Source: a virus
Lineage: Duplodnaviria; Caudoviricetes
Strand: one strand, 5' to 3'
Virus record (IMG/VR): IMGVR_UViG_3300032046_000029
Coordinates: 1 to 58,728 of that record
Length of the DNA: 58,728 nucleotides
In this document: positions 1-16,805 of the stretch, in pieces
How the letters are laid out: each line of letters begins with the position of its first letter
Numbering within the stretch: position 1 is the stretch's first letter
Position numbers and translations under genes: made by a program
Notes under the pieces: model-generated
Told to the model about the DNA's origin: nothing
Database searches by the model: none
What the model saw: only the letters and a program-made list of their open reading frames with translations

Positions 1-145
1 CTGCGCCCAGGAAGTTGGGGGCAGGCGGGCGTTGGGCCGCGTTCCAGATCATGGCCTTGGTCGCCAGGAGCGTAAAGTCCGCCGGGAGTGCCCGGCAGAG
101 CCGGTAGAGGTGCACCTGGTGCCAGGGATAATCGAGTATTCTCAA
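1..145 (-). CDS. 5' part of a gene running off the window (MRILDYPWHQVHLYRL...), possibly glycosyltransferase-like
   Basis: TTG start 8 nt after the stop of the head gene; frame stays open to the window edge; function is a weak guess. Confidence 0.35.
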   Translation of the reverse strand, partial: MRILDYPWHQVHLYRLCRALPADFTLLATKAMIWNAAQRPPAPNFLGA

Positions 146-153
146 TCTGCCTT

Positions 154-2064
154 CTATGCCCATATTGCTACTTTCGGAAGCCACCTTGCCCACTCCTGTG
201 CCAGCGCCGCCGGGAGCCACAACTCGTATGGGTTCCACGTCTCGGACAGGTGGACACAGTCGTCGCAGTTGTGAACCACGAAGTCATTGGCGATATAATG
301 ATGCCCTGTAGTAACCTCTAGATTGTAGACGGTTTGACAACTATGCATACTGGGGTATAATATACGCATATCACTGTAGTGAGGCAACTTATGGCGTCCG
401 ATCCTACTTATCCGTGTGAAAACTGCGGAAAACCAGTTGGTAAGACGACTCAGAGAGGGAATTACCAAAAACGATTTTGTTCGATCCGCTGTCGCAATGT
501 CGCCAATGCCAAGTCCCAACCACATAATGGGACTTACTGTATCTGCTGTGGCAAGTATCGTCCGGGACGCAAACAGCCCAAGAGTTCCCTGTGCCAGGAG
601 TGTACCGGGACACTTTGGACTCCAGAGAGAACGATCTACCTGACCCAACATTACTCTATTGACGGGGCCGTGAAAGTTGCCTCCGCTCTGGGTCTTGAAC
701 ATTCCCAAGTTCTGAGTAAGGCTAATAAGTTGGGCCTCAAACTTACAAAAGAGGCGCAAGGCAGAATCATTCATTCTGTTGCCGCTGTCTATATGCGAAA
801 GCGCAATCCAATGCACCAACAGGGATCTAAAGATAAAGTGGCTCAATGGAGACGCGACAATCCCGAAAAGACACGACAGATCATGGAGTGTGTTTTTGAG
901 GGCAAACAGAAATCTCAGAGGGACAAGCCCTCCGGCCCTGAGCGCAAACTGCATGGGATGCTGGAATCCCTGGGCGTTAGATTTGATGTAGCCTATCTCA
1001 TTAAACCCAAGTTCATTGTAGACGTGAAAATCGGGAACCTCATTATCCAGGTTGATGGAGATTATTGGCATGGGCATCCACGCTTTGAGCCTCTCACGGA
1101 ACGGCAACAATCGCAAAAGAAACGCGATGAGTCGCAGGATACCTACCTTAGAACCTGCGGCTATACCGTAGTCCGAATCTGGGAAAGCGACCTCGTGCTC
1201 GATAAAGTGATTGCCACACTTAATGAGTACGGCATCTCCATGCCGAATATTTTCAGCACTGATCCATCCCCGCTGGGTTAAAAACGGATGGTTGGGCGTG
1301 CACGAAATGTGGGACTGCCCATCGCTTACGGAAAGCAATTCACCACAGTATGGATTCCGATATATCTTAGTCACAATCCCTGATCCCGACATAGTCGAAA
1401 CTCGATCCCCAATTTGGATCATTTCGATTGGGCGTTTTCCATCTGGAGTCTCGATCATCGTACCAGCCGGAAAACAGTGCTCGGCCTGCCCCAGTCTCCA
1501 GTAGACCAGTAGCAATCCCGGCTGGTCCCCTTCCTCGAACTCTAATTCACACCGGCAGTTCGTGCGGCATTGCGTCTGCCCATCCCCCGGCACCTGCGGG
1601 AGCAGCCCCTGCGCCAGGCCGGTGTAGAAACTGGCGCGGGCATTGCCGCCGTAGAGTTGGGAGCGCCACTGGAGGTACTTCTCTGAGTAAAAGTTCGCAT
1701 TGCCGGCCAGCGCATTGAGCGCGCTGTTTTGGATCGCCTGAGCATAGCGGTTCAGGTACCCGTACTGCGTCCGGCAGTGCGCCCCCAGCCGCCCCCACTC
1801 GGCTTGAGTGATGTTCGCTGCCTCCCCCCCATGCGCGATGATCAATGCATTGGTATGCAGGTACTTGAGTTCCTCCCGCATCGCCTGCTGCCAACTCTCG
1901 GCGCTTAAGTTTCCGCTATGGAGTTGCGAGGCTAAGTCTATAGCACGCCGGTCGAAGTGCTCAACGTAAATATCCAGCGCCGCCCGCCTGGACTCTATCG
2001 TCCGCAGGCGGGGGTAGGGGGCGCCGGGGTTGGCGACGTCGAGGGGACTGGTTCCACCCGGCAT
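154..2064 (-). CDS. Phage minor head/head morphogenesis protein (gpF/SPP1 gp7-like) containing an intein
   Basis: ATG overlaps the portal stop (TAATG at 2062-2066); follows the portal gene; Cys motifs CRTNCRC and, after splicing, AEHCDDC. Confidence 0.75.
   Translation of the reverse strand: MPGGTSPLDVANPGAPYPRLRTIESRRAALDIYVEHFDRRAIDLASQLHSGNLSAESWQQAMREELKYLHTNALIIAHGGEAANITQAEWGRLGAHCRTQYGYLNRYAQAIQNSALNALAGNANFYSEKYLQWRSQLYGGNARASFYTGLAQGLLPQVPGDGQTQCRTNCRCELEFEEGDQPGLLLVYWRLGQAEHCFPAGTMIETPDGKRPIEMIQIGDRVSTMSGSGIVTKIYRNPYCGELLSVSDGQSHISCTPNHPFLTQRGWISAENIRHGDAVLIKCGNHFIEHEVAFPDSDYGIAAGSKVGILRLIAFLLRLLPFRERLKAWMPMPIISINLDNEVPDFHVYNELGFNEIGYIKSNAQGFQHPMQFALRAGGLVPLRFLFALKNTLHDLSCLFGIVASPLSHFIFRSLLVHWIALSHIDSGNRMNDSALRLFCKFEAQLISLTQNLGMFKTQSGGNFHGPVNRVMLGQVDRSLWSPKCPGTLLAQGTLGLFASRTILATADTVSPIMWLGLGIGDIATADRTKSFLVIPSLSRLTNWFSAVFTRISRIGRHKLPHYSDMRILYPSMHSCQTVYNLEVTTGHHYIANDFVVHNCDDCVHLSETWNPYELWLPAALAQEWARWLPKVAIWA
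334..361 (+). promoter_or_regulatory. Sigma70-type promoter inside the intein coding sequence, facing the antisense endonuclease gene
   Basis: TTGACA(334-339)-16 nt-TATAAT(356-361), perfect hexamers. Confidence 0.8.
379..1281 (+). CDS. Vsr/DUF559-like (PD-(D/E)XK) putative homing endonuclease with N-terminal Zn-finger motifs; likely start is ATG at 391
   Basis: CENC/CSIRC/CICC/CQEC motifs; C-terminal FIVD..IIQVDGDYWHG..KRDESQD.YL...GY.VVRIWESD; GTGAGG RBS before ATG 391. Confidence 0.85.
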   Translation: MRQLMASDPTYPCENCGKPVGKTTQRGNYQKRFCSIRCRNVANAKSQPHNGTYCICCGKYRPGRKQPKSSLCQECTGTLWTPERTIYLTQHYSIDGAVKVASALGLEHSQVLSKANKLGLKLTKEAQGRIIHSVAAVYMRKRNPMHQQGSKDKVAQWRRDNPEKTRQIMECVFEGKQKSQRDKPSGPERKLHGMLESLGVRFDVAYLIKPKFIVDVKIGNLIIQVDGDYWHGHPRFEPLTERQQSQKKRDESQDTYLRTCGYTVVRIWESDLVLDKVIATLNEYGISMPNIFSTDPSPLG

Positions 2065-3647
2065 TATGCCTCTGTTTCCTCGAATACTTCGGGCAGCACA
2101 TCCCGCAGCCGCGCTACTGCCTGTGTGATGTCCTGCTCGGTGAACGTCACCTGGCCGGGTACGGGCGACAGCGGAACGGAGACGATCTTCTGCAGGGCCG
2201 CGGCCGGCGGGTTGCCGTCTGTAGTCGCCGGTTCCTGGCCCGGCTCGGCGGCCTGGAAGGCGACGGCCTCCGGTACCTCTTCCTCGACCTCCTCTTCCGT
2301 TTCCTCGTCCGGTAGCGGCATGGCTATCATCTCCTCTCCCTGCGGGATATTCAACCTCCGGAGGGCCTCCATCAGGTCCACGTAAGTCGGCGGGACGTCC
2401 AGCCGGCCCAGCAGCCCGCGCACGATCTCGAACAACTGCGCGCGGGATTCCGGTTCCAGGCCGACCGTCCGCACCCGCACGCGGGGCGAGTCGGGCGGAA
2501 AGTTTGCCCGCTCTACGATGGGCAGACAATACTCGTTCAGGTGCCGGTCGATGTCTGCTGCATCTTGCATCAGCAGATCCTCGGCTATGTCGGTCAGCTT
2601 ATCCGCCGACGTCGGCCCGCCCAGGTCCCCACCGGTCACGTCCTGCATCGCCTGTGGCGGGATCAGCATCCCCACACTGATTTTTCGGTCGTGGTGGTCG
2701 GCGATCTCGTGGAACTCCCCGACGGCCCGCGCGCTCTCCAGGAAAGCGAGCGTCCACTTGCGCACGGCGCTCATCTCCTCGCCGCCGGTCATCTGATCGG
2801 TCGTCGTGTAGACCGACGAGGCCAGAGCGACCGTCGCACCGGAGCGCACGCTGTCGCCGACGGCGGTGGCGACGTCGCGGTTGGAGGAGCCTGATGGGTC
2901 CGTGCCGGGCGGGAATCCGACCATGACGGCCGGGTTGATTTGCTTCTGGAGCCACACGAGGTAGAGGTCGTGGCCGAAATGTTTGGCCCACCATTCCTTG
3001 TAGGCATTCTCCAGCCGGCCGCTTCCGGCGTAGGCCCCGAATGCCCGCGCCTTGCCCATCGTGATCCACAGGCTGAAAAACGCATCCACGTCGCCGTCGG
3101 TGGTGGTGATGCCCAGGAACGTCCGGCCCTTGGGGTCGAAACGGGCACTGGAGGTCACAGGGTAGCATTGGTCGAAACCCTCGACGATGTAGGGAGTAGC
3201 AGAGCTATTCCACACGGGCGGGGCGCCGATCTCCTCCGGCTCTGGCACCTGGAAGCGAAACTTCTTGATCAGGCCACAGGAACCGAGCGCCACGGCCTGA
3301 GATGCCTGGATGATGAACTCGCGTTCCCAGGCCCGGAACATGGCCTCGATGAATCTGCGCTTCGCCTCGTCCGGGCATTCCACTACCCGCTTGGCCTTGA
3401 CCAGAGAAGCGGTGATGAAGCCCATCGCAAGAGCGATGACAGGATCGCGCAGCATCTCTAGCTTTACGCGCTCCGGGATGTTCCTGGCGGACGTCATGCG
3501 ACCGTAGCGCCGCTCCGGGTCCCCCAGCCAGTAGCCGTAGGTGCCGAAGAATTGACTCTGCGCGGATGGTGCAGTCGTGCGCGGGGTTTCCGGGAGAATC
3601 TGCCCTTCTGGGGCTTTGGCTATGTGGGTAGTGGGTTTTTCTGGCAT
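2064..3647 (-). CDS. Portal protein (DUF935/Mu gp29-like)
   Basis: 527 aa, lies between terminase and minor head genes; portal-like C-terminus (GGPTSAD..IDRHLNEYCLPIVERANF). Confidence 0.75.
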   Translation of the reverse strand: MPEKPTTHIAKAPEGQILPETPRTTAPSAQSQFFGTYGYWLGDPERRYGRMTSARNIPERVKLEMLRDPVIALAMGFITASLVKAKRVVECPDEAKRRFIEAMFRAWEREFIIQASQAVALGSCGLIKKFRFQVPEPEEIGAPPVWNSSATPYIVEGFDQCYPVTSSARFDPKGRTFLGITTTDGDVDAFFSLWITMGKARAFGAYAGSGRLENAYKEWWAKHFGHDLYLVWLQKQINPAVMVGFPPGTDPSGSSNRDVATAVGDSVRSGATVALASSVYTTTDQMTGGEEMSAVRKWTLAFLESARAVGEFHEIADHHDRKISVGMLIPPQAMQDVTGGDLGGPTSADKLTDIAEDLLMQDAADIDRHLNEYCLPIVERANFPPDSPRVRVRTVGLEPESRAQLFEIVRGLLGRLDVPPTYVDLMEALRRLNIPQGEEMIAMPLPDEETEEEVEEEVPEAVAFQAAEPGQEPATTDGNPPAAALQKIVSVPLSPVPGQVTFTEQDITQAVARLRDVLPEVFEETEA

Positions 3648-3741
3648 AATTTACCGCCTATGGCATTATGACCATAATCCTATACCTTATATCTCGCAGT
3701 CGCTTGCATATGGAATTAATGATAAATTGCCAATTATTGCG

Positions 3742-4209
3742 CTATTCTAACCAAGCCCAGCTTTTCCCATGCTTGATTGCGCTAATGGTCGTAGGACCCA
3801 CCCTGAATAGCTTTGCGATTTTGCTAGGTCCCATACCTCCTGAGAGTAAGTCTCTAATCTCGTGTACTTGTATCTCAGACAATTTAGCGCAAGCAATTCT
3901 ATATCCACGGGCTTGGCGACCTTTTTTGACCATATCCTTACTATTACCGGGTTTCGTTTCTACGAACAAATGCCTTGGGTTACAACAACAAGGATTGTCA
4001 CAATGATGGCAGACAACCATACCAGGAAGAATATCTCCATAGGTTAAAATAAAGGCAACTCGATGTGCTGTCGTCGTTTCCTTTCCCATCCAAACTCTAC
4101 CATAATTCTTATGCCTACGTCCGTCCTTTGCCGCCTTCCAGGGCCAGCATTCATTGGGCTTGCCTATATCTACCTTGTCCCAGAACTGTTCCTGTAGACT
4201 TCTTGCCAT
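3742..4209 (-). CDS. HNH homing endonuclease
   Basis: ECWPW..YG..AHRVAF..VVCHHCDNPCCCNPRHL..N..DM, plus C-terminal HTH; AT-richer than flanks. Confidence 0.92.
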   Translation of the reverse strand: MARSLQEQFWDKVDIGKPNECWPWKAAKDGRRHKNYGRVWMGKETTTAHRVAFILTYGDILPGMVVCHHCDNPCCCNPRHLFVETKPGNSKDMVKKGRQARGYRIACAKLSEIQVHEIRDLLSGGMGPSKIAKLFRVGPTTISAIKHGKSWAWLE

Positions 4210-4253
4210 TCCGTTTCCCTCCCCTATAGCATTACGGCCATAACTCTACAGAC

Positions 4254-4772
4254 TCAGCCCCCTACCGGCTCGAACGTTGGCTGCGGAGGGTAGGGGGTTG
4301 CAGTAGGGTAAGCCGTCGGACTGGGACCGATGTCCGGGCAGACCGGCGTCGGCAGGCAAGTCGGCATCGGCGCTGGCGTATACGTCGGCTGGATAGGCCA
4401 TTCTGGCGGGCAGTCCGGCGCGCCGGGACAGCTATCCCACCAGTGAGCCTCTACGTCCGGCGTGCGGGTCGGTAGGGGCAGGACCGTAGGGCGCGGGGTC
4501 GAGGTGGGAGAATGCTCAGGAGTGGGAATGGGAGAGACAAGCGTAGGAAGCGGAGAGATGGGGGAGATGGGGGACGTAAAGAATGCAGAAGGGGGGTCGC
4601 CAGGCAAGGCCAACGACAGAGCGATGGTGATGGCCAACGTCCCCATGCCGCCCAGGATGACTTGCCGGGTGCTCGCAGCGCGCAGTCCATGCCAGGCTAT
4701 CCGTATGCCGTCCTTTAGGCTTTCTATCATAACCTCATGCCTCATTTTGCTGGCGGATGTCGCCGCCATCAT
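4254..4772 (-). CDS. Pro/Thr-rich membrane-anchored protein
   Basis: One hydrophobic segment followed by PTP repeats. Confidence 0.55.
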   Translation of the reverse strand: MMAATSASKMRHEVMIESLKDGIRIAWHGLRAASTRQVILGGMGTLAITIALSLALPGDPPSAFFTSPISPISPLPTLVSPIPTPEHSPTSTPRPTVLPLPTRTPDVEAHWWDSCPGAPDCPPEWPIQPTYTPAPMPTCLPTPVCPDIGPSPTAYPTATPYPPQPTFEPVGG

Positions 4773-5172
4773 CGCCGACTATCACCGTTGCCGGTGAATG
4801 CCGTTCCCGGTTTTGCACCGTCCTGTTAATAAGGACAGAGAGCGGGTTCTCCCCGGCTGTGATACGATATAATTGCTCATCCGTCAGGGCAGCCATATTG
4901 ATCTCCGTCAGGACAGAGAGCGGGTCCTCCCCGGCTGTGATACGATATAATTGCTCATCCGTCAGGGCAGCCACCTCGGCCTCAATCCGGCGGATGTCAC
5001 CGCCATCACCGCCGGCCAGCACCGCCAGGCCGAACTCGGTCGCCTCACGCAAGATCACGGACAATTTTACCCCTCGGTCTCGCGCCCACCTCTCCGCTTC
5101 CTCGTACAGCGGAAGGGGTAGACGATAGCCCACCGACACTGACACATCTTTTCCGCTAACTGTCGTCACCAC
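4735..5172 (-). CDS. Small ribbon-helix-helix-like protein with two copies of a TerS-like C-terminal motif
   Basis: GGAGG RBS plus GTG at 5172; repeat ALTDEQLYRITAGE(D/N)PLSVL. Confidence 0.6.
   Translation of the reverse strand: MVTTVSGKDVSVSVGYRLPLPLYEEAERWARDRGVKLSVILREATEFGLAVLAGGDGGDIRRIEAEVAALTDEQLYRITAGEDPLSVLTEINMAALTDEQLYRITAGENPLSVLINRTVQNRERHSPATVIVGDDGGDIRQQNEA
4833..4972. repeat. Tandem direct repeat, about 62 nt near-identical, 75-nt period
   Basis: ggacagagagcgggt(t/c)ctccccggctgtgatacgatataattgctcatccgtcagggcagcca occurs twice. Confidence 0.9.
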
Positions 5173-5185
5173 TTCTATACCTCCA

Positions 5186-6964
5186 TCACAGTTGCCCCCG
5201 CAGACTGCCGGGGACGTAATGCCGTTCCTTGCCCGTTCCGGGCGATTCATCCTCCCCGCCACGTGCCTCCGCCGTCTGGCCGGGGTCCGGCGGGAGGATC
5301 GAGAGTGCGACTTCGCAGTAGGCTTTCGCGTGGTGCAGGTGGTCGGGCTTGCCTGTGTGGGGGAAGGTGTAGGCCGTCGAGCCGTCCTCCCGCACCCGCT
5401 TGACTTTGACGTTGGCCGTCATGTGCTCCAGCAGGCCCTCTACGTTTTCCCACTCTGCCGGGAGTTCGTCTATCCCCAGTTGGAGTTTCGCCCCGGCCTC
5501 GTCCAGCGCCTTCGTGCGCTCGATCTTGACCACCCCCCGGCCTCGATCCCAGCGCGCCATGTCCGCCTCCGGCGAGTCCAGGTACTGCGCCAGCCACACC
5601 CGGCCCCGGTGGCGCTTCTGGAATTCCACGTCGAGCCGCAATTCCGGCGCATCGTCCACCACGCAGCGCTGGACGTTGTAGCGGGCCATCAGTACGTCCA
5701 GGTCGCTCCAGTCCAAGACGTTGCCGATTGCCACCGACCGCTCGCGCCCACCGGGCCGCCGTTCCTTGATCCAGTAGTATAACTCCAGCCCGACGTCCAC
5801 TCCCATCGCCGTCCAGGCCGCTCCTGGCGGGAAGGCCGGGTACTGGCCGGGCAGGGCGGCGCAGGCGGCCAGGGCCTCGCGGGTGAGCCGGGCGCCTTTC
5901 GGCTCGTAGGGTAGCCCTAAGTCGCCGTTCCAGAAGGCTTGCCGGTCCAGGTCACGCTGGGCCTGGCTGTGCTCCCAAAGTTCGTCGAGGTCCAGGCGCT
6001 CGTCCACCAGGCGCGGGATCCAATACCCCACGACAGCGCTGCCCGGATTGCGCGCCCGCCAGCGCGCCCGCCCCCCGCTCCACATTCCCACCCGCTCTAT
6101 CGCCGCATGGCAAGTGGGGCAGATCGTCCGGGCATGTGGATCATCGGCGACCGGCCCCCGCACCAGTGACCAGTCCAGCCGGTGCCACTGCCCGCACCCC
6201 TGGCACCGGACCTCTACCTCGCGCCGGTCGGACGCCTGGTACTCAGCGTCTATCCCCAGGTCCGGGTAGGTCGGCGTCGAAAGGTCGATCTCCCAGCGCA
6301 TCGCGGATGCCTTGAGGCGGTCGCGGATCAGGGGGATGGCGGCGGGCGGCACCCGGTCGAATTCGTCCACGATCGCCAGGTCTGCCGGCGATTCGCTCAG
6401 TTGCGCCGCCCGGCGGGGATCGCCTTTCGGGATAGCCGTAGACCGAATGTAGAGGTTAAATCCCCCCTGGAACGTCTTCAGCCCCACGTTATCTATGTTG
6501 CCCGCAATGGCGTGAAAGTGGGGACTGGCGGAGATGGCCGGGTCTACGCGGGAGTGGGCGAAGTTGCCTTGCGTCGGGCCGGGCGGCAGGGCGTAGAATA
6601 CACTGCCTCTGCCGTTCAGAACGTAAAACGATAGGTTCAAGGCGAACTCCGTCGCCCCGATCTGTGCGGCCTTGCGGACGACCATGCGCCCGCCGGGCTG
6701 GGCCAGTTCGTCTATGGCTTTGTAAATGTCCTCGAACCAGGGATAATCCCGCAGGGAGAACCGCTGCGGCTTACCCTGTGCTTTGTCCAGAATCCAACGG
6801 CGTTCCCGCGTCCACCCCAGGAATGGCAATCTCGCTGGTGGGCTTCCCGTCGGCGGGTTCGGATGTCGCCGTCTTTTCTCCCGTTTCGCTCGTTCTCTTA
6901 TTGCCTGTTCCTGCAAGGACAGCAAGCGGGTCCTCCCCTGCCGCGATGCGGTCGAGTTGCTCAT
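5186..6964 (-). CDS. terL: Terminase large subunit (GpA-like)
   Basis: Walker A variant RKAAQIGATE, Walker B AIVDEFD, STPT motif, Zn ribbon, nuclease MGVDVG, C-terminal DHLHHA. Confidence 0.92.
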   Translation of the reverse strand: MSNSTASRQGRTRLLSLQEQAIRERAKREKRRRHPNPPTGSPPARLPFLGWTRERRWILDKAQGKPQRFSLRDYPWFEDIYKAIDELAQPGGRMVVRKAAQIGATEFALNLSFYVLNGRGSVFYALPPGPTQGNFAHSRVDPAISASPHFHAIAGNIDNVGLKTFQGGFNLYIRSTAIPKGDPRRAAQLSESPADLAIVDEFDRVPPAAIPLIRDRLKASAMRWEIDLSTPTYPDLGIDAEYQASDRREVEVRCQGCGQWHRLDWSLVRGPVADDPHARTICPTCHAAIERVGMWSGGRARWRARNPGSAVVGYWIPRLVDERLDLDELWEHSQAQRDLDRQAFWNGDLGLPYEPKGARLTREALAACAALPGQYPAFPPGAAWTAMGVDVGLELYYWIKERRPGGRERSVAIGNVLDWSDLDVLMARYNVQRCVVDDAPELRLDVEFQKRHRGRVWLAQYLDSPEADMARWDRGRGVVKIERTKALDEAGAKLQLGIDELPAEWENVEGLLEHMTANVKVKRVREDGSTAYTFPHTGKPDHLHHAKAYCEVALSILPPDPGQTAEARGGEDESPGTGKERHYVPGSLRGQL

Positions 6965-7343
6965 CGGTCAGTGTGCGCACGTCGATCTCGATCTGGCGAG
7001 CGGTCGGCGGGACGTCCAGGTTGAGCATCTTGGCGCGGCGTTTCTTACAATCCAGACGGGCCGTGAACCACTGAGGCGATTTCGTAGAGACGAACTGCAA
7101 AGCGGCGTCGTGCTCCATCTCATCCAGTTCTGCCAGTTCGCGTCCGCGCGCCTCTGCGATGTCTGCCACGGCGGCCTCGCGCCATTGCTGCATCAGCCAT
7201 TTGACGTCGCGGCTGACGGTTGCCTGGCTCACCTTCAGCCGTTCGGCGATGTCGGTTTCGTTGACGCGGCGCAGGTACAGGCTCGCGACCTTGCGCCGGC
7301 GCGCCAGCATCTCCCCTCGCTTCTTCGTCCGTTCATCGTTCAT
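6771..7343 (-). CDS. terS: Terminase small subunit (HTH)
   Basis: N-terminal HTH (IAERLKVSQATVSRD), RRAKMLNLD motif; directly upstream of terL. Confidence 0.75.
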   Translation of the reverse strand: MNDERTKKRGEMLARRRKVASLYLRRVNETDIAERLKVSQATVSRDVKWLMQQWREAAVADIAEARGRELAELDEMEHDAALQFVSTKSPQWFTARLDCKKRRAKMLNLDVPPTARQIEIDVRTLTDEQLDRIAAGEDPLAVLAGTGNKRTSETGEKTATSEPADGKPTSEIAIPGVDAGTPLDSGQSTG

Positions 7344-7409
7344 TATTCACTCTATACTATGCAAAACGGTCCTATGGGATTGCTAACGTAACCCCATAGA
7401 TACTGAGCA

Positions 7410-8831
7410 TTACGTTTCGACCAATCGCGGCTCTATGCCTGCTAGTAGGTTTCTTATATGTAAGGCAATGGCACGCATAAAGAGAGGCGGGACACTGTTG
7501 CCAACCCTCTCAAAGCCGTCACTGAGTAAGCCGTGAAAAGTGAAAGCATCAGGATAGAAATGTAGCCGCTTCACCTCTCCAAGTGAGATAGGGCGATCAT
7601 CAGACGGGTGCCAGATATGATAAGCGCCTGCACCGCCGCCCCTGTCTACAGTAGGTGATACCTCATTCCACGCAAGCCTATGATGACTATGATGAACTTT
7701 GCATCTTTGACCAGGTTTCACGGCCCGCATTTGCCTTAGTGTTAGGCTGTCCGCCGCAAGTCTGACATATTCTGATTGAGGCACTTGCTGAAAGGCTTGT
7801 CTGACATTGACAGGCCGTTCACTTGTCATTGGGTGCGTTGCCTGTTTCCCCAGGTCCTCTCTGACTCCAATCCAAATCAGCCTCTCTCTCGACTGTGGTA
7901 CATTGAACCACATCGCATTGAGAAGCCTACAGGAAACCCGATACCCGCTTGCTTTCAGTTCTTTCATGATCTCAGCAAATACAAGCTTCATCTTGCCCTT
8001 GACAAGTCCGCTGACATTTTCCATTACGAAAACGCGCGGCCTGAATGCTCGCAGCAGGCGCACGTACTCATGAAACAATGAGTTGCGCGGGTCATTCAGT
8101 TGCCGCTTGCCAGCGGTAGAAAAACCTTGACAGGGTGGTGAACCGTCAAGCACATCAAGTTGCCCCGATTCAACCCCGGCTAATCTCAGGGCCTCATCAT
8201 CTGACAGTTGCACAATATCCCCTTGCCAGAATGTTACATCAGGAAAGTTCAGCCTAAACGTTGCCGCTGCATTCTTATCCCAGTCTACCGCGAGGAGTTC
8301 CCTAAAACCCGCCATGCTATAACCGAGAGATGAACCACCGCAACCCGCGAACAGACTTACGACTGTCGGTGCATCTGATTCACGTGGTGCAAGATGCTCC
8401 TGCCATGCCGCCTCAAGTTTCTCAATATATGTTTCGCCCTCCAACTCTCTCTCTCTCTCTCCCTGGAAAAGCCCTACTGCGATTCTATTTGCAATCGCGC
8501 GCATCATCAATGGTGGAACGCTATTGCCAATACATGCTCCCGCCTCTCTCTGCCATTGATAAGCATCTGGAAAGCTGCCAAGCCTTGCTATCTCAATGAT
8601 TTTGGGTTTCCTGATGCCTGCATGAGTTAGAAATTGATAATCAGAACTAGCTTTCGTAACCGTTGCCGCTGGCCTTGGATGCCTGATCCAAGGATTGATC
8701 TTCATACTACGACTTGCAATAACATCTGGTATTATATCACCAATCCCAAGGGGCTTATTTCTTGCCTTGGGAAATAAATTCCCCAGGTCTACTTCGCCCA
8801 CTTGTGACCGCATTGTGGACACTCCAACCAT
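7410..8831 (-). CDS. DNA cytosine-5 methyltransferase with an extra N-terminal copy of motifs IX-X
   Basis: SLFAGCGG, GSPPCQGFS, ENV, QSRER; GNSVPP occurs twice. Confidence 0.92.
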   Translation of the reverse strand: MVGVSTMRSQVGEVDLGNLFPKARNKPLGIGDIIPDVIASRSMKINPWIRHPRPAATVTKASSDYQFLTHAGIRKPKIIEIARLGSFPDAYQWQREAGACIGNSVPPLMMRAIANRIAVGLFQGERERELEGETYIEKLEAAWQEHLAPRESDAPTVVSLFAGCGGSSLGYSMAGFRELLAVDWDKNAAATFRLNFPDVTFWQGDIVQLSDDEALRLAGVESGQLDVLDGSPPCQGFSTAGKRQLNDPRNSLFHEYVRLLRAFRPRVFVMENVSGLVKGKMKLVFAEIMKELKASGYRVSCRLLNAMWFNVPQSRERLIWIGVREDLGKQATHPMTSERPVNVRQAFQQVPQSEYVRLAADSLTLRQMRAVKPGQRCKVHHSHHRLAWNEVSPTVDRGGGAGAYHIWHPSDDRPISLGEVKRLHFYPDAFTFHGLLSDGFERVGNSVPPLFMRAIALHIRNLLAGIEPRLVET

Positions 8832-9301
8832 TCCACTTCATCAGCTATTGACTCATCATACTCAGGAAATTCAGCGGGCGGCGTGGATGATTCTGCCTCT
8901 GCTTTCAATTCATTCAATATCTCCTGTACCGCCGCGTCCTGCTCCCCCAACCCCTCCAGCAGCTCCCTTACCTTGCTGGCATCAGCCTCGGCCATTGCCG
9001 CGAGTGGGTCAAGGGTTGCCAGGATCAGCGCTTCTTGCTCTGGCGTCCAGGAACCAATCAGGACAGGTACGAGTTCACCTTCCGGCACAACTTCCTGCCG
9101 GAGGTGGCCGTCGATCAGCCTGTTGGTCGTTTCGTTATACAGGAGCGCGCCAGCCCAACCGACCTGGCCCAGCACCGACGAAAGCGCCTCTCGTTGCGCC
9201 TTCGGATGTCTGCGCCAGTTCTTGGGGTTTGGCGTCAGGCTTTTTGGGTCAACCCACTCTAGCCTGAGTTTCGGCTGATCGACGACCTGATCTTCTAGCA
9301 T
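8789..9301 (-). CDS. ParB/Srx-like N-terminal domain protein with C-terminal Zn ribbon
   Basis: LTPNPKNWRRH..LIDGHLR; CPQCGHKW. Confidence 0.8.
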   Translation of the reverse strand: MLEDQVVDQPKLRLEWVDPKSLTPNPKNWRRHPKAQREALSSVLGQVGWAGALLYNETTNRLIDGHLRQEVVPEGELVPVLIGSWTPEQEALILATLDPLAAMAEADASKVRELLEGLGEQDAAVQEILNELKAEAESSTPPAEFPEYDESIADEVEWLECPQCGHKWAK

Positions 9302-9541
9302 CGCTGTCTATCGAATTACGAACTGAAACCCACAGGGGCTGTCTCCCTCTGCGCTATCTCAGCGAAAGGCATCTCCACGTCCCAACCAAACAGATGAGCG
9401 CCAACGCCAAGAAGCCTAATGCAAGCAGCGTGGCTCCTGATAATTCGTATAGCATGGCGCTGACCAGGTAGCCGGCGGTGCCCAGTAAGCCCAGCGCAAG
9501 CAGGTATATCCTCACGTTACCCCGTCTGCCCAACCGCTCAC

Positions 9542-10186
9542 CTACCTTTCAGCTACTCCCAACGCCGCGAAGAATGCCACTCGCCAGCCCTTGACTTTCC
9601 AGCCGGGACAATCGGTCTTATATCCCCGCACGATCGCCCGCTCGTTGTGGCCCTGGACTTCCGCCAGCGGTATCTCGTACTCGCGCATCAGCCACGCCAC
9701 CAAGCGGACAGTGGCTTCGATCTGCTCGGCAGGTGGCTTGAGCACGCTTAAATCGCCCGCCATGCCGATGCTGATCGTGGTCGGGTGGCCGCCCGTGTGA
9801 TCGTGCCACACGGCCAGGTCCAGCGGGGCCAGCAGGTATACGGGGCAGCCGTCGCCCTGGCTCACCCAAAATTGGTATTGGATGCCGGGGTAGCCCTTGC
9901 CGCCCGCTTTGTTGACCGACCTGGTGCAATACTTGGCGGTCTCCAGGGGGCTATGGCTCATGGTGTGGTGGATCGTAATACCCGTGATGTCCGAGAGTTG
10001 CCTGGGTGGCCAGGCGGTGAGTTTGTTTGCCAGGATGTCGGGATGGTCAGGGTGGGTGTTGACGGGCATCTCCGCTATCCGATCAGTCCACAGTGCCGAC
10101 GGGATAGCAGGCAATAGACGCTTCACGGCGTCCGCTGCCTGCATGATGCTGTCGAATGCCAATTGCACGAGTTCCTGATCGGTCAT
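9542..10186 (-). CDS. Endolysin, N-acetylmuramoyl-L-alanine amidase (Amidase_2)
   Basis: ITIHHT, AVWH, VQGHNE, TDCPG zinc-amidase motifs. Confidence 0.88.
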   Translation of the reverse strand: MTDQELVQLAFDSIMQAADAVKRLLPAIPSALWTDRIAEMPVNTHPDHPDILANKLTAWPPRQLSDITGITIHHTMSHSPLETAKYCTRSVNKAGGKGYPGIQYQFWVSQGDGCPVYLLAPLDLAVWHDHTGGHPTTISIGMAGDLSVLKPPAEQIEATVRLVAWLMREYEIPLAEVQGHNERAIVRGYKTDCPGWKVKGWRVAFFAALGVAER

Positions 10187-10203
10187 CTCGCTCGATTACG
10201 GGA

Positions 10204-10638
10204 TTATGGCCGTCCGGCCATCTTCCTGAACATCGGCACGTTGGCCGCCCGCAACTGCTCGAACAATCCAAACGTAGAGACGAGCATCAGGACCAATTTG
10301 CCGATTGCCGCCAGGACTGCCAGGACTTGCTGGAATCCTGCTCCCAGCGGGTCGAAGCCGAACACACCCGCGATGTAGAGAGCAGCGAACGCCACGACAT
10401 TTGCAATCGCCGCCCAGGTGCCGGCCTGCCCGTCCGGGATTATGCCGATCTTCTTGAGGATTTCGATCGCCAGCATGATCAGTGCCCCAACCCCCACCGC
10501 CGCGACGTACTGTTCGATCTGCGAGATGTCGGGCAGGGTACCTTCCTGTGCCAGGGACTGCGCCAGCGCCACGGCTGGAACGGCCAGGGCGATCAGCGCG
10601 ACCAGAGCCAAGACCAAACCGTACTTGTATGCCTTCAT
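10204..10638 (-). CDS. Holin-like membrane protein
   Basis: Several TM segments, basic C-terminus, adjacent to the endolysin. Confidence 0.65.
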   Translation of the reverse strand: MKAYKYGLVLALVALIALAVPAVALAQSLAQEGTLPDISQIEQYVAAVGVGALIMLAIEILKKIGIIPDGQAGTWAAIANVVAFAALYIAGVFGFDPLGAGFQQVLAVLAAIGKLVLMLVSTFGLFEQLRAANVPMFRKMAGRP

Positions 10639-10684
10639 TTCGAGCCTCCTGTTTGCCTGAAAGTTGACTGGGACTGAAACCTAC

Positions 10685-10888
10685 CTACAACGACGCGAGG
10701 TCGTGAGAGACTTCGATCCGTCCCCCCACGACCTCGTTACCGTGAAAGATTGCTTCTACCGTGCCATACCCTGTCCTCTGCGCGACGCGGATGGCGAGGG
10801 CATTGAGCCAATCCAGGGAGCGCAAACCCGGCGGTGGCGTGACTTCACAGATCAGCCGGAATTCCACTATCCTACCTTGTCGTATCAC
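10685..10888 (-). CDS. Hypothetical protein
   Basis: Short ORF in the late operon orientation. Confidence 0.45.
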   Translation of the reverse strand: MIRQGRIVEFRLICEVTPPPGLRSLDWLNALAIRVAQRTGYGTVEAIFHGNEVVGGRIEVSHDLASL

Positions 10889-11095
10889 GAGCCGCAGGCC
10901 GTCTGCAGGTCGCCGTCTCCGGTCTCTCGCACGGCGGCCAACAGGCCCTCGAACGCCAGTTCGACTTTTTTCGTTTGCGCCTCAGATAATCCTACGTCCA
11001 TCCCCATCCTGTCTGTGGAGCAAAGAAAAAGGATCGCCACGTGTACCACAGTGGCGGCCCCGGGATCTACCTCTACGAGCGCGCCTACCTATGAG

Positions 11096-11124
11096 ATTAT
11101 ACTCCTAAGCCTTTGGAATGTCAA
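11096..11124 (-). promoter_or_regulatory. Sigma70 promoter facing the lysis/packaging/head operon
   Basis: Minus strand TTGACA-17 nt-TATAAT. Confidence 0.8.
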
Positions 11125-11189
11125 TAGCGAAAATGGTAAAGAAACCACTAAAAATGGACCGTTTCGAGGGTACAGTGGGAATGGACTTC

Positions 11190-11218
11190 TTGACATTTCT
11201 GGTGATATACCCTATAAT
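11190..11218 (+). promoter_or_regulatory. Sigma70 promoter, divergent, for the Phd-like/FtsK operon
   Basis: TTGACA-17 nt-TATAAT. Confidence 0.8.
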
Positions 11219-11247
11219 GAGCAGTATAACCATAATAGGAGGAACCG

Positions 11248-11529
11248 ATGGACAAAGCACGAACAGTGACCATGAGTGAACTACACTTGAACCCAGGGGA
11301 GATCGTGTCCCAGGTCCACTACACCAGGCAGCCCGTGGCCGTCGTCAAGCACGGCAAGCCGCTCGTAATCCTGGTGCCAGTGATCGGTGTGCTGGACGGG
11401 AGCGACGATGCAGTCGACGCGATTCGCCGGTGGCTGGACTCCCTGGAGCCGGCACAGACCTGGGAGCAGCGCGAGGTTGAGAAGCCGATAGACACGAGCG
11501 GGACTGACAAACCGGGAGGATGGGACTAA
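11248..11529 (+). CDS. Phd/YefM-family antitoxin-like DNA-binding protein
   Basis: TVTMSELH..GEIVSQV...PVAVVKHGKPLVILVPV pattern; AGGAGG RBS. Confidence 0.75.
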   Translation: MDKARTVTMSELHLNPGEIVSQVHYTRQPVAVVKHGKPLVILVPVIGVLDGSDDAVDAIRRWLDSLEPAQTWEQREVEKPIDTSGTDKPGGWD

Positions 11530-12491
11530 TGGGCAATATCCTCATCTTTACCATCCTGGCCGTCACTATCCCCCGCTGGGCGCTCACGCTGGCCCAGGTG
11601 GACACGTTTGGCCTGACCATCGGCGGGAGCCTGATCCCCATCGCGGCCATTGGGGAAGCCATCGTCTTGGAGTTTGGCAACCTGTTCATCCTGAGCGTCT
11701 TCACTCGTTGCCAGCGCCATGCATTCCAGTGGCAAGCGGACTGGGAGAAACACGATGAACTGATGCGTGATCAGAGCAAGCACAACCGCAGGCCGGAGCA
11801 CGATCCGCGTATCCGGGGTTACAGCCTCTTGCCGGCCATGCTCCTGACCCTAGAGACGATGACGCTCCTGGCGCAGACGCCGTTCATCGCCGGCCAGTTG
11901 CTCGGCATTCCGGCGGTGCGGTTGCTTAACGAGTGGGGACGCTTTTGGGTGTGGGCCTATGCCTTCCTGTTGGTCATTGCCCCTGGCGTGATGACTATCG
12001 CCATCGGTTTCGGGATCAACTACGATAAGGTGACGCGGGAGATCGAGGGCAAAGGGCGAACAATGGCCGGACAGCGGCAGCCAGTGGGCGACCAATTGCG
12101 CGAGTGGGCGACTGGCTTACTCAGTAGACGCTTGAGGCAAGGCGTCCAGGCGTCGAATGGGCGACCAGTGGCGGCTACTCAAGCGTACACTGGACGGTTG
12201 GACACTGAGGCGGAAGCGTCCACTCCGTCCACTGGACAGACAGTAGACGACAGTGGACGTACAGTGGACGAGACCAGCCAAAGCCTGGCCGCCCACCTGT
12301 CTACTCTGCAAGGGTACCTGTCCAGTGAGCGACAGACTGGACGGGTGAACGGTTTCTTTCGACGGGCTGACATCGAGCGGGCGTGCCGCATTTCCAAGAG
12401 CCACGCCAGCAATGTAATCCGCTATGGCGTCGAGCATGGGGTCTTGGAGAAAATCGGGCGCTACGAGTACGAGTTCGTGAACAAGGAATGA
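11520..12491 (+). CDS. Multi-TM membrane protein with C-terminal HTH (Spd/DUF2637-like)
   Basis: Four TM segments, low-complexity linker, C-terminal wHTH-like region; upstream of FtsK. Confidence 0.55.
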   Translation: MGLMGNILIFTILAVTIPRWALTLAQVDTFGLTIGGSLIPIAAIGEAIVLEFGNLFILSVFTRCQRHAFQWQADWEKHDELMRDQSKHNRRPEHDPRIRGYSLLPAMLLTLETMTLLAQTPFIAGQLLGIPAVRLLNEWGRFWVWAYAFLLVIAPGVMTIAIGFGINYDKVTREIEGKGRTMAGQRQPVGDQLREWATGLLSRRLRQGVQASNGRPVAATQAYTGRLDTEAEASTPSTGQTVDDSGRTVDETSQSLAAHLSTLQGYLSSERQTGRVNGFFRRADIERACRISKSHASNVIRYGVEHGVLEKIGRYEYEFVNKE

Positions 12492-12647
12492 AAAGCCGGG
12501 CCTTTCACAGCCCGGCCAGCGAGCCAGGTCCGCCAAGACGCAGCATCGCCGCCATCATTATACCGCTATCCGTTTAGGATAGCAACTCTACAGGCGGCGG
12601 ACCCCATGCTCTCGCGGGTTCGCCGCCTGTAGTTTCTGGGGGAACGT

Positions 12648-12911
12648 ATGACGATTTTCGATGCAAAGTGTAAAGTGACTTCGTGCCCGTTCAATCTTGG
12701 GGCGCGGGGCGTCACCTGCGGCTGGTTGACCGGTCCTGGCAAGCGGTGCCACCATGCTGCCTATCGGGAAGCCTGGCAAGCCGCTCAGGAATTAGAGCAG
12801 GCGCAACAGGCGGAAGCGCCGCGGCCGGAATCCCTTACGACGAGGGCGCTGGCCGCCAACAGGCCGATGACTGCTGATCGAGCAAGGCAGTTAGTATTAG
12901 GGGGAGGATAG
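12648..12911 (+). CDS. Hypothetical Cys-containing protein
   Basis: ORF abuts the FtsK RBS. Confidence 0.45.
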   Translation: MTIFDAKCKVTSCPFNLGARGVTCGWLTGPGKRCHHAAYREAWQAAQELEQAQQAEAPRPESLTTRALAANRPMTADRARQLVLGGG

Positions 12912-12915
12912 CAAG

Positions 12916-14304
12916 ATGAACAAGGAACGACTACTCGACGATTGGGCCGCACGGGTGATGAGGGCGGCGGTAGGCGGGCATCTGGGCCGCACAATCGCCA
13001 TTACGCACGTCGAGACGGTATGCGGGCCACGGGCCGGGACGCTTCGCATTCTGGCCGGGCTGGATGCCGGACGGCTGATGACGATGCTTGGCCGCCAGGA
13101 GTGCGCGGTTCTGGCCCAGATGATTCCGCAGGAGTGGGATTTCCAGGGCAAGCCGGCGGTATACCTGGACGGCCGCTGGGTATGCCTGACTGCCGGATGG
13201 CCGGCCGGGGAAGACAACAGCGACGTGCGGCTGTCTCAAATCTGCAATCGGCCGCTGGGCGGTGGGCGATGGGTATTGGGCGTGGACGAACTGGGCAGCA
13301 CTGTGATTGCCTCATGCGACCTCGCCGACCATCCTCATAGTCTGATCTCCGGGATGACGGGCAGCGGGAAAACGGTCGCGTTGTGGTTGGCCATTCGGCA
13401 ATTATGTGCCGATCCAGAGAACAGGGTCGTACTGGTGGACGGCAAGCACAGTGCATCGTTCCGGCATAGCGACCGATCGCCGTTCTGCTTGACTTGCCAG
13501 GTTGGGCCGGTGGCGACCGAGCCGGATAGCTGGCGCGGAGCATTGGTATGGGCGGTCCAGGAGATGAGGCGGCGCTACGATTCCGGCTACGAGGACCGGT
13601 TGATCATCGTCGTAGACGAGGTTCAGGAGGTGATCCAGGACCCCATCGCGCTGGAGGCCCTGCGGCGACTGGTCGTGATGGGTCGGGATGCTGACGTTCA
13701 CGTGATCGCCGCCACCCAACACCCGGTCGTGGATGCATTGGGTGGCCCGACTGTGGCGCGAAACCTGGGTCTACGGCTATCCTTCCGGGTAGGGGACGAC
13801 GTTGCCGCGCGCGTGGCGCTGAATGACTCCAGCCTACCGGCCCATCGGCTCTTGGGCCGAGGGGATGCCTATCTCCGCACGATCAAGCATACATGCCGCC
13901 TCCAAGGAGCCTACGTCACGGACGACGATCTGGCCGCCGTCAAGGGGAATGGATTCGAGGTAGATACCTGGCCAGAGGTATGTGCTGAGGACATCGGGGT
14001 CGAGCCTCGCCAGCGGGGGCGGCGTTCCCCCTGGCCGGCTCCAGCAGAGATCGGCGCCGGCCTGATTGCAGCATCCAGAGGGCAGGGGCGCGGACTGTTC
14101 CAAGATGCGGTAGAGGCCGCGATCCGGCGCCGGCCTGGGTCCGACCGGGCAGACAAAACGCTTACCCTGTGCGGAGAAGCGGTCGAGTTCTTGCGCGACA
14201 CCGGTTGGTCTCTAGCCCAGGTCGAACAACCCGCGGTGAGGCGCGAGCCATATCCCACGGAGGTCATATACTTACCTTCTGTGGCCGCTGCCCGGCCTGC
14301 CTGA
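12916..14304 (+). CDS. FtsK/SpoIIIE-family DNA translocase (TraB-like)
   Basis: HSLISGMTGSGKT, LVDGK, IIVVDEVQE, GRDADVHVIAATQHP, LLGRGD. Confidence 0.9.
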   Translation: MNKERLLDDWAARVMRAAVGGHLGRTIAITHVETVCGPRAGTLRILAGLDAGRLMTMLGRQECAVLAQMIPQEWDFQGKPAVYLDGRWVCLTAGWPAGEDNSDVRLSQICNRPLGGGRWVLGVDELGSTVIASCDLADHPHSLISGMTGSGKTVALWLAIRQLCADPENRVVLVDGKHSASFRHSDRSPFCLTCQVGPVATEPDSWRGALVWAVQEMRRRYDSGYEDRLIIVVDEVQEVIQDPIALEALRRLVVMGRDADVHVIAATQHPVVDALGGPTVARNLGLRLSFRVGDDVAARVALNDSSLPAHRLLGRGDAYLRTIKHTCRLQGAYVTDDDLAAVKGNGFEVDTWPEVCAEDIGVEPRQRGRRSPWPAPAEIGAGLIAASRGQGRGLFQDAVEAAIRRRPGSDRADKTLTLCGEAVEFLRDTGWSLAQVEQPAVRREPYPTEVIYLPSVAAARPA

Positions 14305-14410
14305 AATTCGAGTATATACCCCTAGAAGGTCCAAAAACAGTCCTGTGGGGTTATGGTACTAACATTACAGGCAGGCAGGCAGGTAAACAGGCAGATAATA
14401 GGGAGGAACG

Positions 14411-14827
14411 ATGGACAAGAAAAAGACTGAATCATTGACAGGCTGCACGATGAGGGTGGGGGCGCTGCTCCTGCTGTTCGCCGTCGTCGTAGGCGGGGCG
14501 GGGGTGTATTGCCTCATGGTAGTGGGGGAGGGGGTCCTCAGATGGTGGGCGGGAATCGCCACGCTGGTTGCGATAGTAGGGATCCCGGCTGCTTTCATTC
14601 TTGGCCTATACGGCTCGCGGGAGCGGATGGCGGGGATGACCATCGGGGTCAACCAAATCGTGGGGGCGGCGGGGAAGGTGATCGACCTGCGCGGCCAGGC
14701 GGCGGCGGCTGTGCGCACGGCGACGACGGCACCGGGCCAGCCCATGCCGCCGACCGATTTCTCACAGATCGTCGTGACGCGGGCACCGCGCCCTGCGCTG
14801 CGGGACGGGAAGGATATCTATGTCTGA
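14411..14827 (+). CDS. Two-TM membrane protein
   Basis: GGAGG RBS; two hydrophobic helices. Confidence 0.65.
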   Translation: MDKKKTESLTGCTMRVGALLLLFAVVVGGAGVYCLMVVGEGVLRWWAGIATLVAIVGIPAAFILGLYGSRERMAGMTIGVNQIVGAAGKVIDLRGQAAAAVRTATTAPGQPMPPTDFSQIVVTRAPRPALRDGKDIYV

Positions 14828-15290
14828 GCCTGAACCCAGCGCGATCGAGGCGGATGAGGGAAGCGGCGATGTCCGCGACGTTTGGGGTGGTGTGGATTTT
14901 CTCTTGGATTGTTTCGCCAAGTTTGAGCTGATCGAACTGCTGTCCGGGAGCATGATCAATATGTGGCTCTGGCTGCACGGCGAGGGATACCGGAGATTCT
15001 CGTTCTCACGCCGCACCGAATGGCGCGGGATCGACGTCGAGCGGCTCCTGCGGCGGCACGGCATACGGCTGTGGGAGCGCAGTTTAGACTCGAAGGACCT
15101 GTACTTCAATGTGAAAGCAGGGCAGGCGCGCTTCGCCGAATACGTGATGCTACGGGCCGGCGTGCCGTTGACCTCAGAGTGGGTCGATCCCCGACATGCC
15201 GGCGTCCAGCCCATCGGCGAACCACTCGCCAGGGGGCCGGCGTTGAAACCGGGGTTGACAGAACGGATACTCAGCATATTCTTGAATTGA
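14820..15290 (+). CDS. Hypothetical protein
   Basis: Translationally coupled to the previous ORF. Confidence 0.55.
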   Translation: MSEPEPSAIEADEGSGDVRDVWGGVDFLLDCFAKFELIELLSGSMINMWLWLHGEGYRRFSFSRRTEWRGIDVERLLRRHGIRLWERSLDSKDLYFNVKAGQARFAEYVMLRAGVPLTSEWVDPRHAGVQPIGEPLARGPALKPGLTERILSIFLN

Positions 15291-15303
15291 GTGGGGTAGC
15301 AAT

Positions 15304-16038: not shown

Positions 16039-16039
16039 G

Positions 16040-16072
16040 TTGCACAAACCCGGCACCTCGTTCGTTATATAG
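16040..16072 (+). promoter_or_regulatory. First copy of a repeated ECF-type promoter, TTGCACAAA-N11-CTCRTTCGTTCTAT
   Basis: Further copies at 20650, 21768, 22668, 23953, 28088, 29484, 31136, 40302, 43396 and 45265 (partial at 26578); all on the + strand ahead of RBSs. Confidence 0.8.
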
Positions 16073-16121
16073 GTGTTGCTGTGGTACAATAATATCAGAG
16101 TAGCCGCAAGGAGATGAGGAG

Positions 16122-16364: not shown

Positions 16365-16416
16365 AGTCGCCATTTGATTCGATCCGCAGGGGCGGCCACC
16401 CGCCCCGCAGGATACT

Positions 16417-16671: not shown

Positions 16672-16805
16672 CCCACAACTTCCCCACCTGTGTGGGGGTC
16701 GGGAGCATCCCGCTCCCCCTGGCACTCGTTACGCGGTGGCGGGTAACATCCTCTTTTCCTATGGCGTTATGATCGTAAGAGTTCAGCGGATTCTCTGTTT
16801 TTGTA

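Follow-up and report, generated by a model that had tools for sequence, protein, structure and literature searches.

The window analysed here is the entire IMG/VR record IMGVR_UViG_3300032046_000029 (58,728 bases, linear, with an estimated completeness of 71%), which derives from an uncultured phage in a sediment metagenome and has a G+C content of about 60%. Close to its left end, a class-1 intein interrupts a small minus-strand gene that adjoins the portal gene, and the middle of this intein is covered on the plus strand by a complete gene for a zinc-ribbon, Vsr-like nuclease (Table 1). The G+C content falls from about 0.65 in the flanks to 0.44-0.53 across positions of about 230-1500. The minus-strand frame of the host gene is free of stop codons from 2598 to 157, its probable start codon (ATG, 2064-2062) has one base in common with the portal stop codon, and the predicted spliced product is 233 amino acids (aa) long. 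The N-extein matched phrog_24776 (function unknown) at 2.6e-21. The same family was matched by gp013 of Synechococcus phage S-CBS4, an intein-free homologue of 220 aa that is likewise encoded directly after the portal gene and in which ..AQH CDDC.. is unbroken.

Table 1. Features of the intein locus and neighbouring genes in the window (nt, nucleotides; HMM, hidden Markov model; pLDDT, predicted local distance difference test)
Feature	Position	Strand	Details
Host gene, 636-aa precursor	154..2064	-	stop codon 156-154; directly after portal gene
N-extein, 196 aa	1477..2064	-	ends ..RLGQAEH; translation and phrog_24776 match
C-extein, 37 aa	157..267	-	starts CDDC; S-CBS4 gp013 has uninterrupted ..AQH CDDC..
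Class-1 intein, 403 aa	268..1476	-	starts CFPAGT, block B TPNH, ends VVHN, followed by +1 Cys (CDDC)
N-terminal Hint subdomain, blocks A and B	1168..1476	-	own HMM 7.5e-40; pLDDT 81-92 for intein residues 1-80
In-frame linker, about 257 aa	397..1167	-	reverse-complement reading of the nuclease gene; no recognisable domain
C-terminal Hint subdomain, blocks F and G (VYNLEV..HHYIANDFVVHN)	268..396	-	own HMM 5.7e-20; TIGR01443; pLDDT 86-89
Nuclease gene, 296 aa from ATG 391 (alternative GTG 379)	391..1281	+	two Cys4 zinc ribbons, helical region, Vsr/EDxHD-like domain
Sigma-70-type promoter match	334..361	+	TTGACA-16 nt-TATAAT, 12/12; ends 29 nt before ATG 391
Shine-Dalgarno-like GAGG	381..384	+	6 nt before ATG 391
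Portal gene, Mu-type	2064-3647	-	Pfam Portal_Mu 8.9e-15
HNH endonuclease gene, free-standing	3742-4209	-	HNH_3 1.1e-10; helix-turn-helix tail
Large terminase gene, GpA-type	5186-6964	-	
C-5 cytosine DNA methylase gene	7410-8831	-	1.9e-67

The intein has the features that class-1 splicing requires, namely the nucleophile Cys1, the block B TxxH motif, the terminal HN, the +1 Cys and a Hint fold, and from these it is predicted to splice. Residues C1, T60, H63, H402 and N403 were invariant across all nine aligned inteins. Profile searches placed PT-HINT (36.3 bits, cut-off 27.7) and Hint_2 (35.7 bits, cut-off 28.4) from Pfam, and TIGR01443 intein_Cterm (26.3 bits, cut-off 15.6) from NCBIfam, above their cut-offs, and these matches were confined to the two ends of the intein. 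The Intein_splicing family scored 35.5 bits, just under its cut-off of 35.8, with an envelope that bridges the middle and covers splicing-domain positions only. No non-Hint Pfam domain was found in the middle of the intein at E ≤ 1e-1. In the AlphaFold2 (AF2) model, built on a shallow alignment of nine sequences, residues 1-80 reached a pLDDT of 81-92 per ten-residue block and the last ~23 residues 86-89, whereas residues 87-367 were mostly below 50 (linker blocks 23-54). Foldseek matched this model to mini-inteins and other Hint domains only, over 87-103 columns (6qaz, 6bs8 and 3ifj), the best match being the gp41-1 intein 6qaz (E 1.9e-6). A search with the linker alone (P0001 residues 290-560) against 5.8 billion proteins gave no match among 2502 candidates, a result that is uninformative because such long open reading frames (ORFs) may stay uncalled and an antisense reading diverges fast. 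The initial annotation, made from the letters and ORF translations, had described an unbroken intein with intact splicing motifs around an in-frame middle lacking a recognisable domain, and both parts of this description held.

The gene on the opposite strand encodes a protein that begins with two zinc ribbons, continues with about 110 aa of helical structure, and has its Vsr/EDxHD-like catalytic domain at about residues 185-285 (counting from GTG 379); the N-termini of its homologues resemble the form starting at ATG 391. Of 1037 candidates from a protein search, 141 were homologues at E ≤ 1e-3, the closest with 52% identity over 99% of the length; the numbers of representative clusters (in 1.84 billion) were 79 at E ≤ 1e-30, 276 at 1e-10 and 2186 at 1e-3. 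Across 28 aligned nucleases, C13, C16, C34, C54, C57, E188, D215, D226, H231, H233 and D250 were invariant, including the candidate catalytic Glu, Asp and His residues; the two Cys clusters (C13, C16, C34, C38 and C54, C57, C72) were invariant or nearly so, and the motif block around VD..DGDYWHGHPRF..RD..RIWE was likewise conserved. The AF2 model of the nuclease had a mean pLDDT of 90. Its best Foldseek match in PDB was the catalytic domain of I-Bth0305I (3r3p; E 3.6e-4, template modelling score 0.74-0.76 by target length, 22% identity), followed by E. coli Vsr (1cw0 and 1vsr, E about 1e-3). A PDB sequence search with the nuclease profile gave one weak match (3hrl, E 2.8e-4). The homologues, invariant residues, fold and I-Bth0305I match together bear out the earlier proposal of a complete zinc-finger and Vsr-like nuclease gene on the antisense strand.

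To examine how widely the arrangement occurs, DNA loci of nuclease relatives (numbered L###) were drawn from metagenome and genome collections by alignment-based scans. A viral-contig scan with the single nuclease protein had returned three distant loci only. A near-full-length nuclease match was present in 37 loci, among which L006/L007, L010/L011, L012/L013 and L052/L087 have identical geometry and are maybe one sequence in two assemblies each. The contiguous antisense form was found in 10 of the 37 (L005, L015, L016, L017, L019, L020, L023, L026, L028 and L084). In each of these, the codon-aligned antisense frame is open across the nuclease and continues into an ORF with Hint matches. Eight relative inteins are complete (365-425 aa) and lie at the homologous extein site, seven of them with the junction ..(A/T)(E/D)H|C....HN|C-x-x-C.. 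and one (L028) with a variant junction; contig ends leave L016 with the N junction only and L005 with neither. The relative inteins are 24-32% identical to that of the window, yet their splicing motifs are all invariant. Relatives of the element come from many metagenomes and two genome bins.

The nuclease codons are in exact register with those of the minus-strand intein frame. Because the strands are codon-aligned, a stop in the intein frame can arise only from TTA, CTA or TCA in the nuclease frame. The nuclease ORF contains 20 Leu and 20 Ser codons, none of which is TTA, CTA or TCA, compared with 7.0 expected from its own position-specific base composition (P = 4e-4; on comparison genes this model predicted well in some cases, 10.4 expected and 10 observed or 13.7 and 13, and was up to twofold off in others, 10.6 and 17 or 8.6 and 4) and 10.3 expected from the codon usage of 12 homologues without a contiguous intein (P = 5e-6). 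The remaining two antisense frames over the nuclease contain 14 and 18 stops. The three codons are also absent from all 10 contiguous loci, whose G+C content at third codon positions (GC3) ranges, with the window, from 0.24 to 0.65, with loci at 0.24-0.30 among them, whereas free-standing homologues without an intein contain 2-20 of them. None of these contiguous homologues carries a stop in its intein frame, and the absence of stops in the window and the 10 further loci argues for selection that keeps both frames open, as the initial annotation had suggested.

The two frames differ in how strongly they are conserved. Pairwise comparison of the window, eight contiguous loci and the split locus L024 (see below) gave 45 pairs, and in every one the nuclease frame was better conserved than the antisense frame (mean identities 0.394 and 0.241), and a similar gap was seen in 15 pairs of homologues without a contiguous intein (0.374 and 0.211). 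Substitutions concentrate at the third codon position of the nuclease; between L016 and L017 there were 44, 33 and 86 at positions 1, 2 and 3, respectively. Apart from its need to stay open, the linker peptide thus shows no sign of constraint. These comparisons bear on the reading that a genuine but diverged endonuclease or DNA-binding domain occupies the in-frame middle and that the plus-strand ORF is its by-product. The open frame is what such a reading would draw on; the lack of a Pfam domain, the mostly low pLDDT, PDB matches to Hint parts only, the linker's lack of matches in 5.8 billion proteins (which may also reflect gene calling), the higher conservation of the plus frame in every pair, and the existence of plus-frame relatives whose antisense frame is filled with stops make it scarcely credible.

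Several results count against the picture of an intact nuclease gene nested in a stop-free but otherwise functionless linker. The family scores of the nuclease are all below threshold, being 19.8 bits for Vsr (cut-off 27), 18.7 for DUF559 (20.6) and 22.4 for MTES_1575 (38.2) in Pfam, and 27.9 for TIGR00632 (97.85) in NCBIfam. These matches are mutually consistent, and the identity of the nuclease rests on its homologues and fold because the profile scores stay below the cut-offs; a profile search of both frames had been proposed at the outset, and it recovered the Hint domain above cut-off on one strand while DUF559 and Vsr stayed below their gathering scores on the other. The low pLDDT of the linker is weak evidence of disorder because only nine sequences were used. 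The summed log10 P(0) of -34.7 for the window and nine loci, if these are taken as independent, overstates the case because the loci are kin, although their nuclease identities average only 39%. Seven homologues with no detectable Hint flank (L004, L006, L014, L021, L036, L049 and L088) have 0-3 antisense stops, compared with 3.6-8.1 expected, and the few that occur sit at the extreme ends of the ORF; recent exit from an intein or some other overlapping ORF are possibilities here, and part of the stop depletion may accordingly be inherited and not currently selected. Finally, an unstructured, hydrophobic linker of ~257 aa might hamper folding or splicing.

The low stop counts of homologues without Hint flanks, together with the fact that, of the antisense frames, the codon-aligned one is the likeliest to be open by chance, would also suit a host gene that is effectively broken, with the nuclease alone functional and the minus frame open by history or composition. 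We consider this very unlikely, given zero stops where 7-10 are expected, zero in 10 related loci even at a GC3 of 0.24-0.30, splicing motifs that are invariant across inteins only 24-32% identical to that of the window, and a frame that runs on through both exteins of a conserved portal-adjacent gene.

We next considered how the nuclease might be expressed from within the intein. A scan of positions 1-2200 found five promoter-like sites, compared with a shuffle mean of 1.3, and the site upstream of the nuclease (Table 1) was the only one to match at 12/12. The nuclease start codon and the C-terminal end of the intein could both be located in eight loci; in all eight, the start codon is 117-132 nt into the intein from that end, which places the upstream signals of the nuclease in the codons for splicing blocks F and G. 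In the window, the stretch encoding the C-terminal Hint subdomain thus also carries, on its opposite strand, the putative promoter and ribosome-binding site of the nuclease gene. A purine-rich GGA/GAGG-like stretch precedes the nuclease start in most of the eight other loci. The promoter match at the same distance scored 11/12 in L024 and 10/12 in L023; the other six loci scored 9/12, a value also reached by 6-30% of random 140-nt windows of the same locus, and a conserved promoter is therefore not established. Judging from these signals, the nuclease is plausibly expressed separately from the host gene, from its own promoter and ribosome-binding site. At its other end, the last 25-40 codons of the nuclease overlap the end of the N-terminal Hint subdomain, and in the window the Leu codon of NHPFL, read on the opposite strand, forms the TAA stop of the nuclease. 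In the structure models, the low-confidence tail of the nuclease (residues 291-300, pLDDT 63) lies opposite confidently predicted strands of the intein, and the part of the intein that faces the nuclease core is the low-confidence linker.

Evidence for an unoccupied site came from contigs of four other DNA metagenome runs, which were aligned to positions 150-2100 of the window. In two runs (X2 and X3), contigs join position 269 to position 1498, skipping 1228 bases with 19 other letters in between; the net loss of 1209 bases is the exact length of the intein. The joint is in the host frame and reads ..W-ELGVAEH followed at once by CDD, so that the intein-less allele predicted earlier (..AEH/CDDC..) does occur in nature, with AEH running directly into CDD. 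The empty allele belongs to a diverged relative; compared with the window, the flanking pieces of the contig show 2 mismatches in 70 letters and 5 in 42. Run X2 also contains two pieces of the intein that are identical to the window (500 and 300 bases, 0 differences).

The empty allele and the fixed geometry speak to whether the element is still mobile. It could instead be fixed, with an intein that still splices for the sake of the host gene and a nuclease that is a relic or has been recruited to another role such as exclusion of rival phages or repair. The same nuclease family does occur outside inteins (in the methyltransferase genes of phages Malithi and Donovan, and at L036, L040 and L052), and some VSR-like cases look vertically inherited in the text of a recent preprint (bioRxiv 10.1101/2025.01.02.630785). 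However, an antisense relic is unprotected by the host frame and should gather stops, and the nuclease is intact in all 11 contiguous members, with invariant Asp, His and Glu residues. The presence of empty and occupied alleles in the same metagenome run is as expected if the site is still polymorphic, and the constant position of the nuclease start relative to the intein end indicates a co-adapted unit. A fixed element therefore seems to us improbable, and the locus most likely represents a mobile phage intein whose splicing and nuclease functions are divided between the two DNA strands.

In the proposed mechanism, the minus strand would encode a contiguous class-1 Hint domain, with an N-terminal part of ~100 aa and a C-terminal part of ~43 aa, inserted into a small portal-associated protein at a conserved site (..(A/T)(E/D)H|C-x-x-C..). 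The ~257 linker codons would have no function of their own, being the reverse complement of the nuclease kept free of stops, which would allow the precursor to be translated through and the intein to excise itself together with its passenger peptide. The plus strand would encode a homing endonuclease of the free-standing type (zinc ribbons and a Vsr/EDxHD-like domain), its signals lying inside the codons of the C-terminal splicing blocks. The nuclease would then cut intein-free alleles of the host gene in co-infecting relatives, and repair would copy the intein and nuclease gene together. Protein splicing, DNA cleavage and its target, use of the promoter, and homing are all predicted steps of this scheme.

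Two further loci showed related architectures. In L024 (2683-6051, minus strand), the nuclease is antisense, and two TCA codons place stops in the intein frame at the borders of the N- and C-terminal Hint subdomains; a Met precedes the C-terminal Hint part, and the 263 codons between the stops are open at a GC3 of 0.29. From its sequence, L024 is a candidate naturally split intein with an antisense nuclease. Its N-extein is a portal protein fused to a homologue of the host protein, the homologous region being joined to the C-terminus of the portal protein (phrog_10963, 1.2e-27). L029 encodes an N-terminal Hint piece, a sense-strand nuclease, and a C-terminal Hint piece with an initial Met and the terminal sequence HN|CEDC. 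The other 25 of the 37 loci had no Hint flank when our own HMMs were run on all 162 loci (L008 is too short to tell), and Pfam found no Hint domain at E ≤ 1e-3 in 128 flanking ORFs of 20 loci. A weak match to the N-terminal Hint model (1.4e-4) was seen in a long ORF of a 363-kb contig (L063, 351-647, plus strand), 2.4 kb away from a distant nuclease homologue, and is probably an unrelated intein.

A more tentative proposal, which we rate as possible though doubtful, is that antisense nesting is a long-lived, co-adapted architecture at one site, in which both frames stayed open while the nucleases diverged to ~39% mean identity and in which the steps of gene breaking are visible, the head-on layout perhaps serving as a built-in timer. 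The contiguous form, the split form with an antisense nuclease, the split form with a sense nuclease, and the free-standing form may be such steps within one family. In such a timer, a strong promoter of the nuclease's own would drive its production ahead of the late transcripts of the head gene; this production would afterwards be switched off by the late transcription or by pairing between the two fully complementary RNAs.

The host gene had been labelled a head protein in the initial annotation. Its position beside the portal gene and the portal fusion in L024 agree with this label, and no family assignment supports it: the extein matched no named family in Pfam, NCBIfam or ESM Atlas, phrog_24776 being the only match. 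Since the label is based on synteny and a fusion and not on a family match, we use it as an inference only. A similar Cys motif suggests a possible link to the head-morphogenesis proteins Mu F and SPP1 gp7, which none of the tools confirmed.

Nuclease homologues were also found beside another type of gene. In Mycobacterium phage Malithi (NC_026605; L165, 1920-2765), a 265-aa nuclease homologue on the plus strand of the locus (1968-2765) lies opposite gp54, which is annotated as a hypothetical protein, and in phage Donovan (L166) a homologue lies opposite annotated gp58. Both sit between two pieces of an N6/N4 DNA methyltransferase gene, and no Hint motif was seen. At these loci, a free-standing endonuclease gene seems to have split the methyltransferase gene, and the annotation seems to have picked the antisense ORF in place of the nuclease. 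Homologues likewise lie beside N6_N4 DNA methylase fragments in L036 (569-799), L040 (76-357) and L052 (1653-2888), with Pfam E-values of 3.3e-16, 1.4e-17 and 5.2e-5, respectively, and the N6_N4 DNA methylase gene seems to be a second favoured target of this nuclease family.

The genes at the left end of the window, all on the minus strand, follow the order GpA-type large terminase, HNH gene, Mu-type portal and intein-bearing gene (Table 1). The free-standing HNH endonuclease gene lies in a low-G+C island (0.41-0.49) between the portal and terminase genes, and the C-5 cytosine DNA methylase gene occupies a second stretch of lower G+C content (0.51-0.54). A megablast search of positions 1-20000 against phage records gave zero matches.

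The locus offers a clean natural case of two proteins encoded by fully overlapping, codon-aligned opposite strands over about 890 bases, in which an informative frame can be distinguished from a merely open one; this is useful for research on gene overlap and on the assembly of selfish elements. The locus also lends support to the view that inteins acquire nucleases by capturing free-standing endonuclease genes, and the occurrence of contiguous and split forms within one family makes a proposed route to split inteins testable. The Hint domain here accommodates an unrelated insert of ~257 residues, and the naturally split relatives L024 and L029 might serve as protein-engineering tools. Gene callers often annotate only a single member of such an overlapping pair, as with Malithi gp54, which is annotated opposite a nuclease homologue.

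Canonical bifunctional inteins, PI-SceI among them, carry their nuclease as an in-frame domain within one polypeptide. The element described here shares with them the Hint splicing domain and presumably a homing life cycle; unlike in PI-SceI, its nuclease is predicted to be a separate protein made from a separate transcript. With I-Bth0305I, a member of the EDxHD homing endonuclease family (Taylor et al. 2011, PMC3239194), the window nuclease has the fold of the catalytic domain in common, as found by Foldseek. I-Bth0305I is described there as residing in a group I intron of recA, whereas the nuclease of the window lies inside an intein, on the other strand, and has two N-terminal zinc ribbons and a helical region.

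Fractured genes, in which Vsr-like endonuclease genes lie between the halves of split inteins, were described together with a stepwise model of gene breaking by Dassa et al. 2009 (PMC2677866). As far as that account goes, the same type of nuclease is combined with Hint domains in phage genes, the nuclease lying between Hint blocks N4 and C2, and the gp41-1 intein of that study (6qaz) is the best structural match of the splicing domain of the window intein. The fractured-gene layout is seen in split form in L029 (sense nuclease) and L024 (antisense nuclease), whereas the window has a contiguous form instead. Because no stop interrupts its intein frame across the nuclease gene, the host protein would be made as one chain and is predicted to splice in cis, not in trans.

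The closest known cases, and the only description of this architecture that full-text literature searches returned, are anti-sense VSR-like homing endonucleases inside full inteins of actinobacteriophages (Gosselin, Arsenault, Gogarten 2025, bioRxiv 10.1101/2025.01.02.630785). The novelty of the arrangement was overstated at first, since its kind had already been reported in that preprint. Judging from its main text, the two share a contiguous intein with an opposite-strand nuclease ORF in place of the usual endonuclease domain, an in-frame region without recognisable structure (unstructured in their models), and a nuclease that matches Vsr (1CW0) and I-Bth0305I (3R3P) with a long helical region in front. 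The proposed origin there is invasion of an intein by a free-standing endonuclease gene. The preprint also cites anti-sense LAGLIDADG inteins (Gorbalenya 1998; Gogarten et al. 2002), which have the same opposite-strand endonuclease ORF on a contiguous intein and a different nuclease family. Unlike the reported actinobacteriophages, the phage here is an uncultured one from a sediment metagenome; its extein is a small portal-adjacent protein (phrog_24776). In the searched text of the preprint, we found the word 'promoter' absent and 'stop codon' used twice in other contexts, and no promoter or stop-avoidance analysis. What the present analysis adds to these known systems is quantified stop avoidance, constraint on the nuclease frame only, a fixed geometry, a consensus promoter in the window, repeated occurrence at a single site in many environments, relatives in split form, and a natural empty allele.

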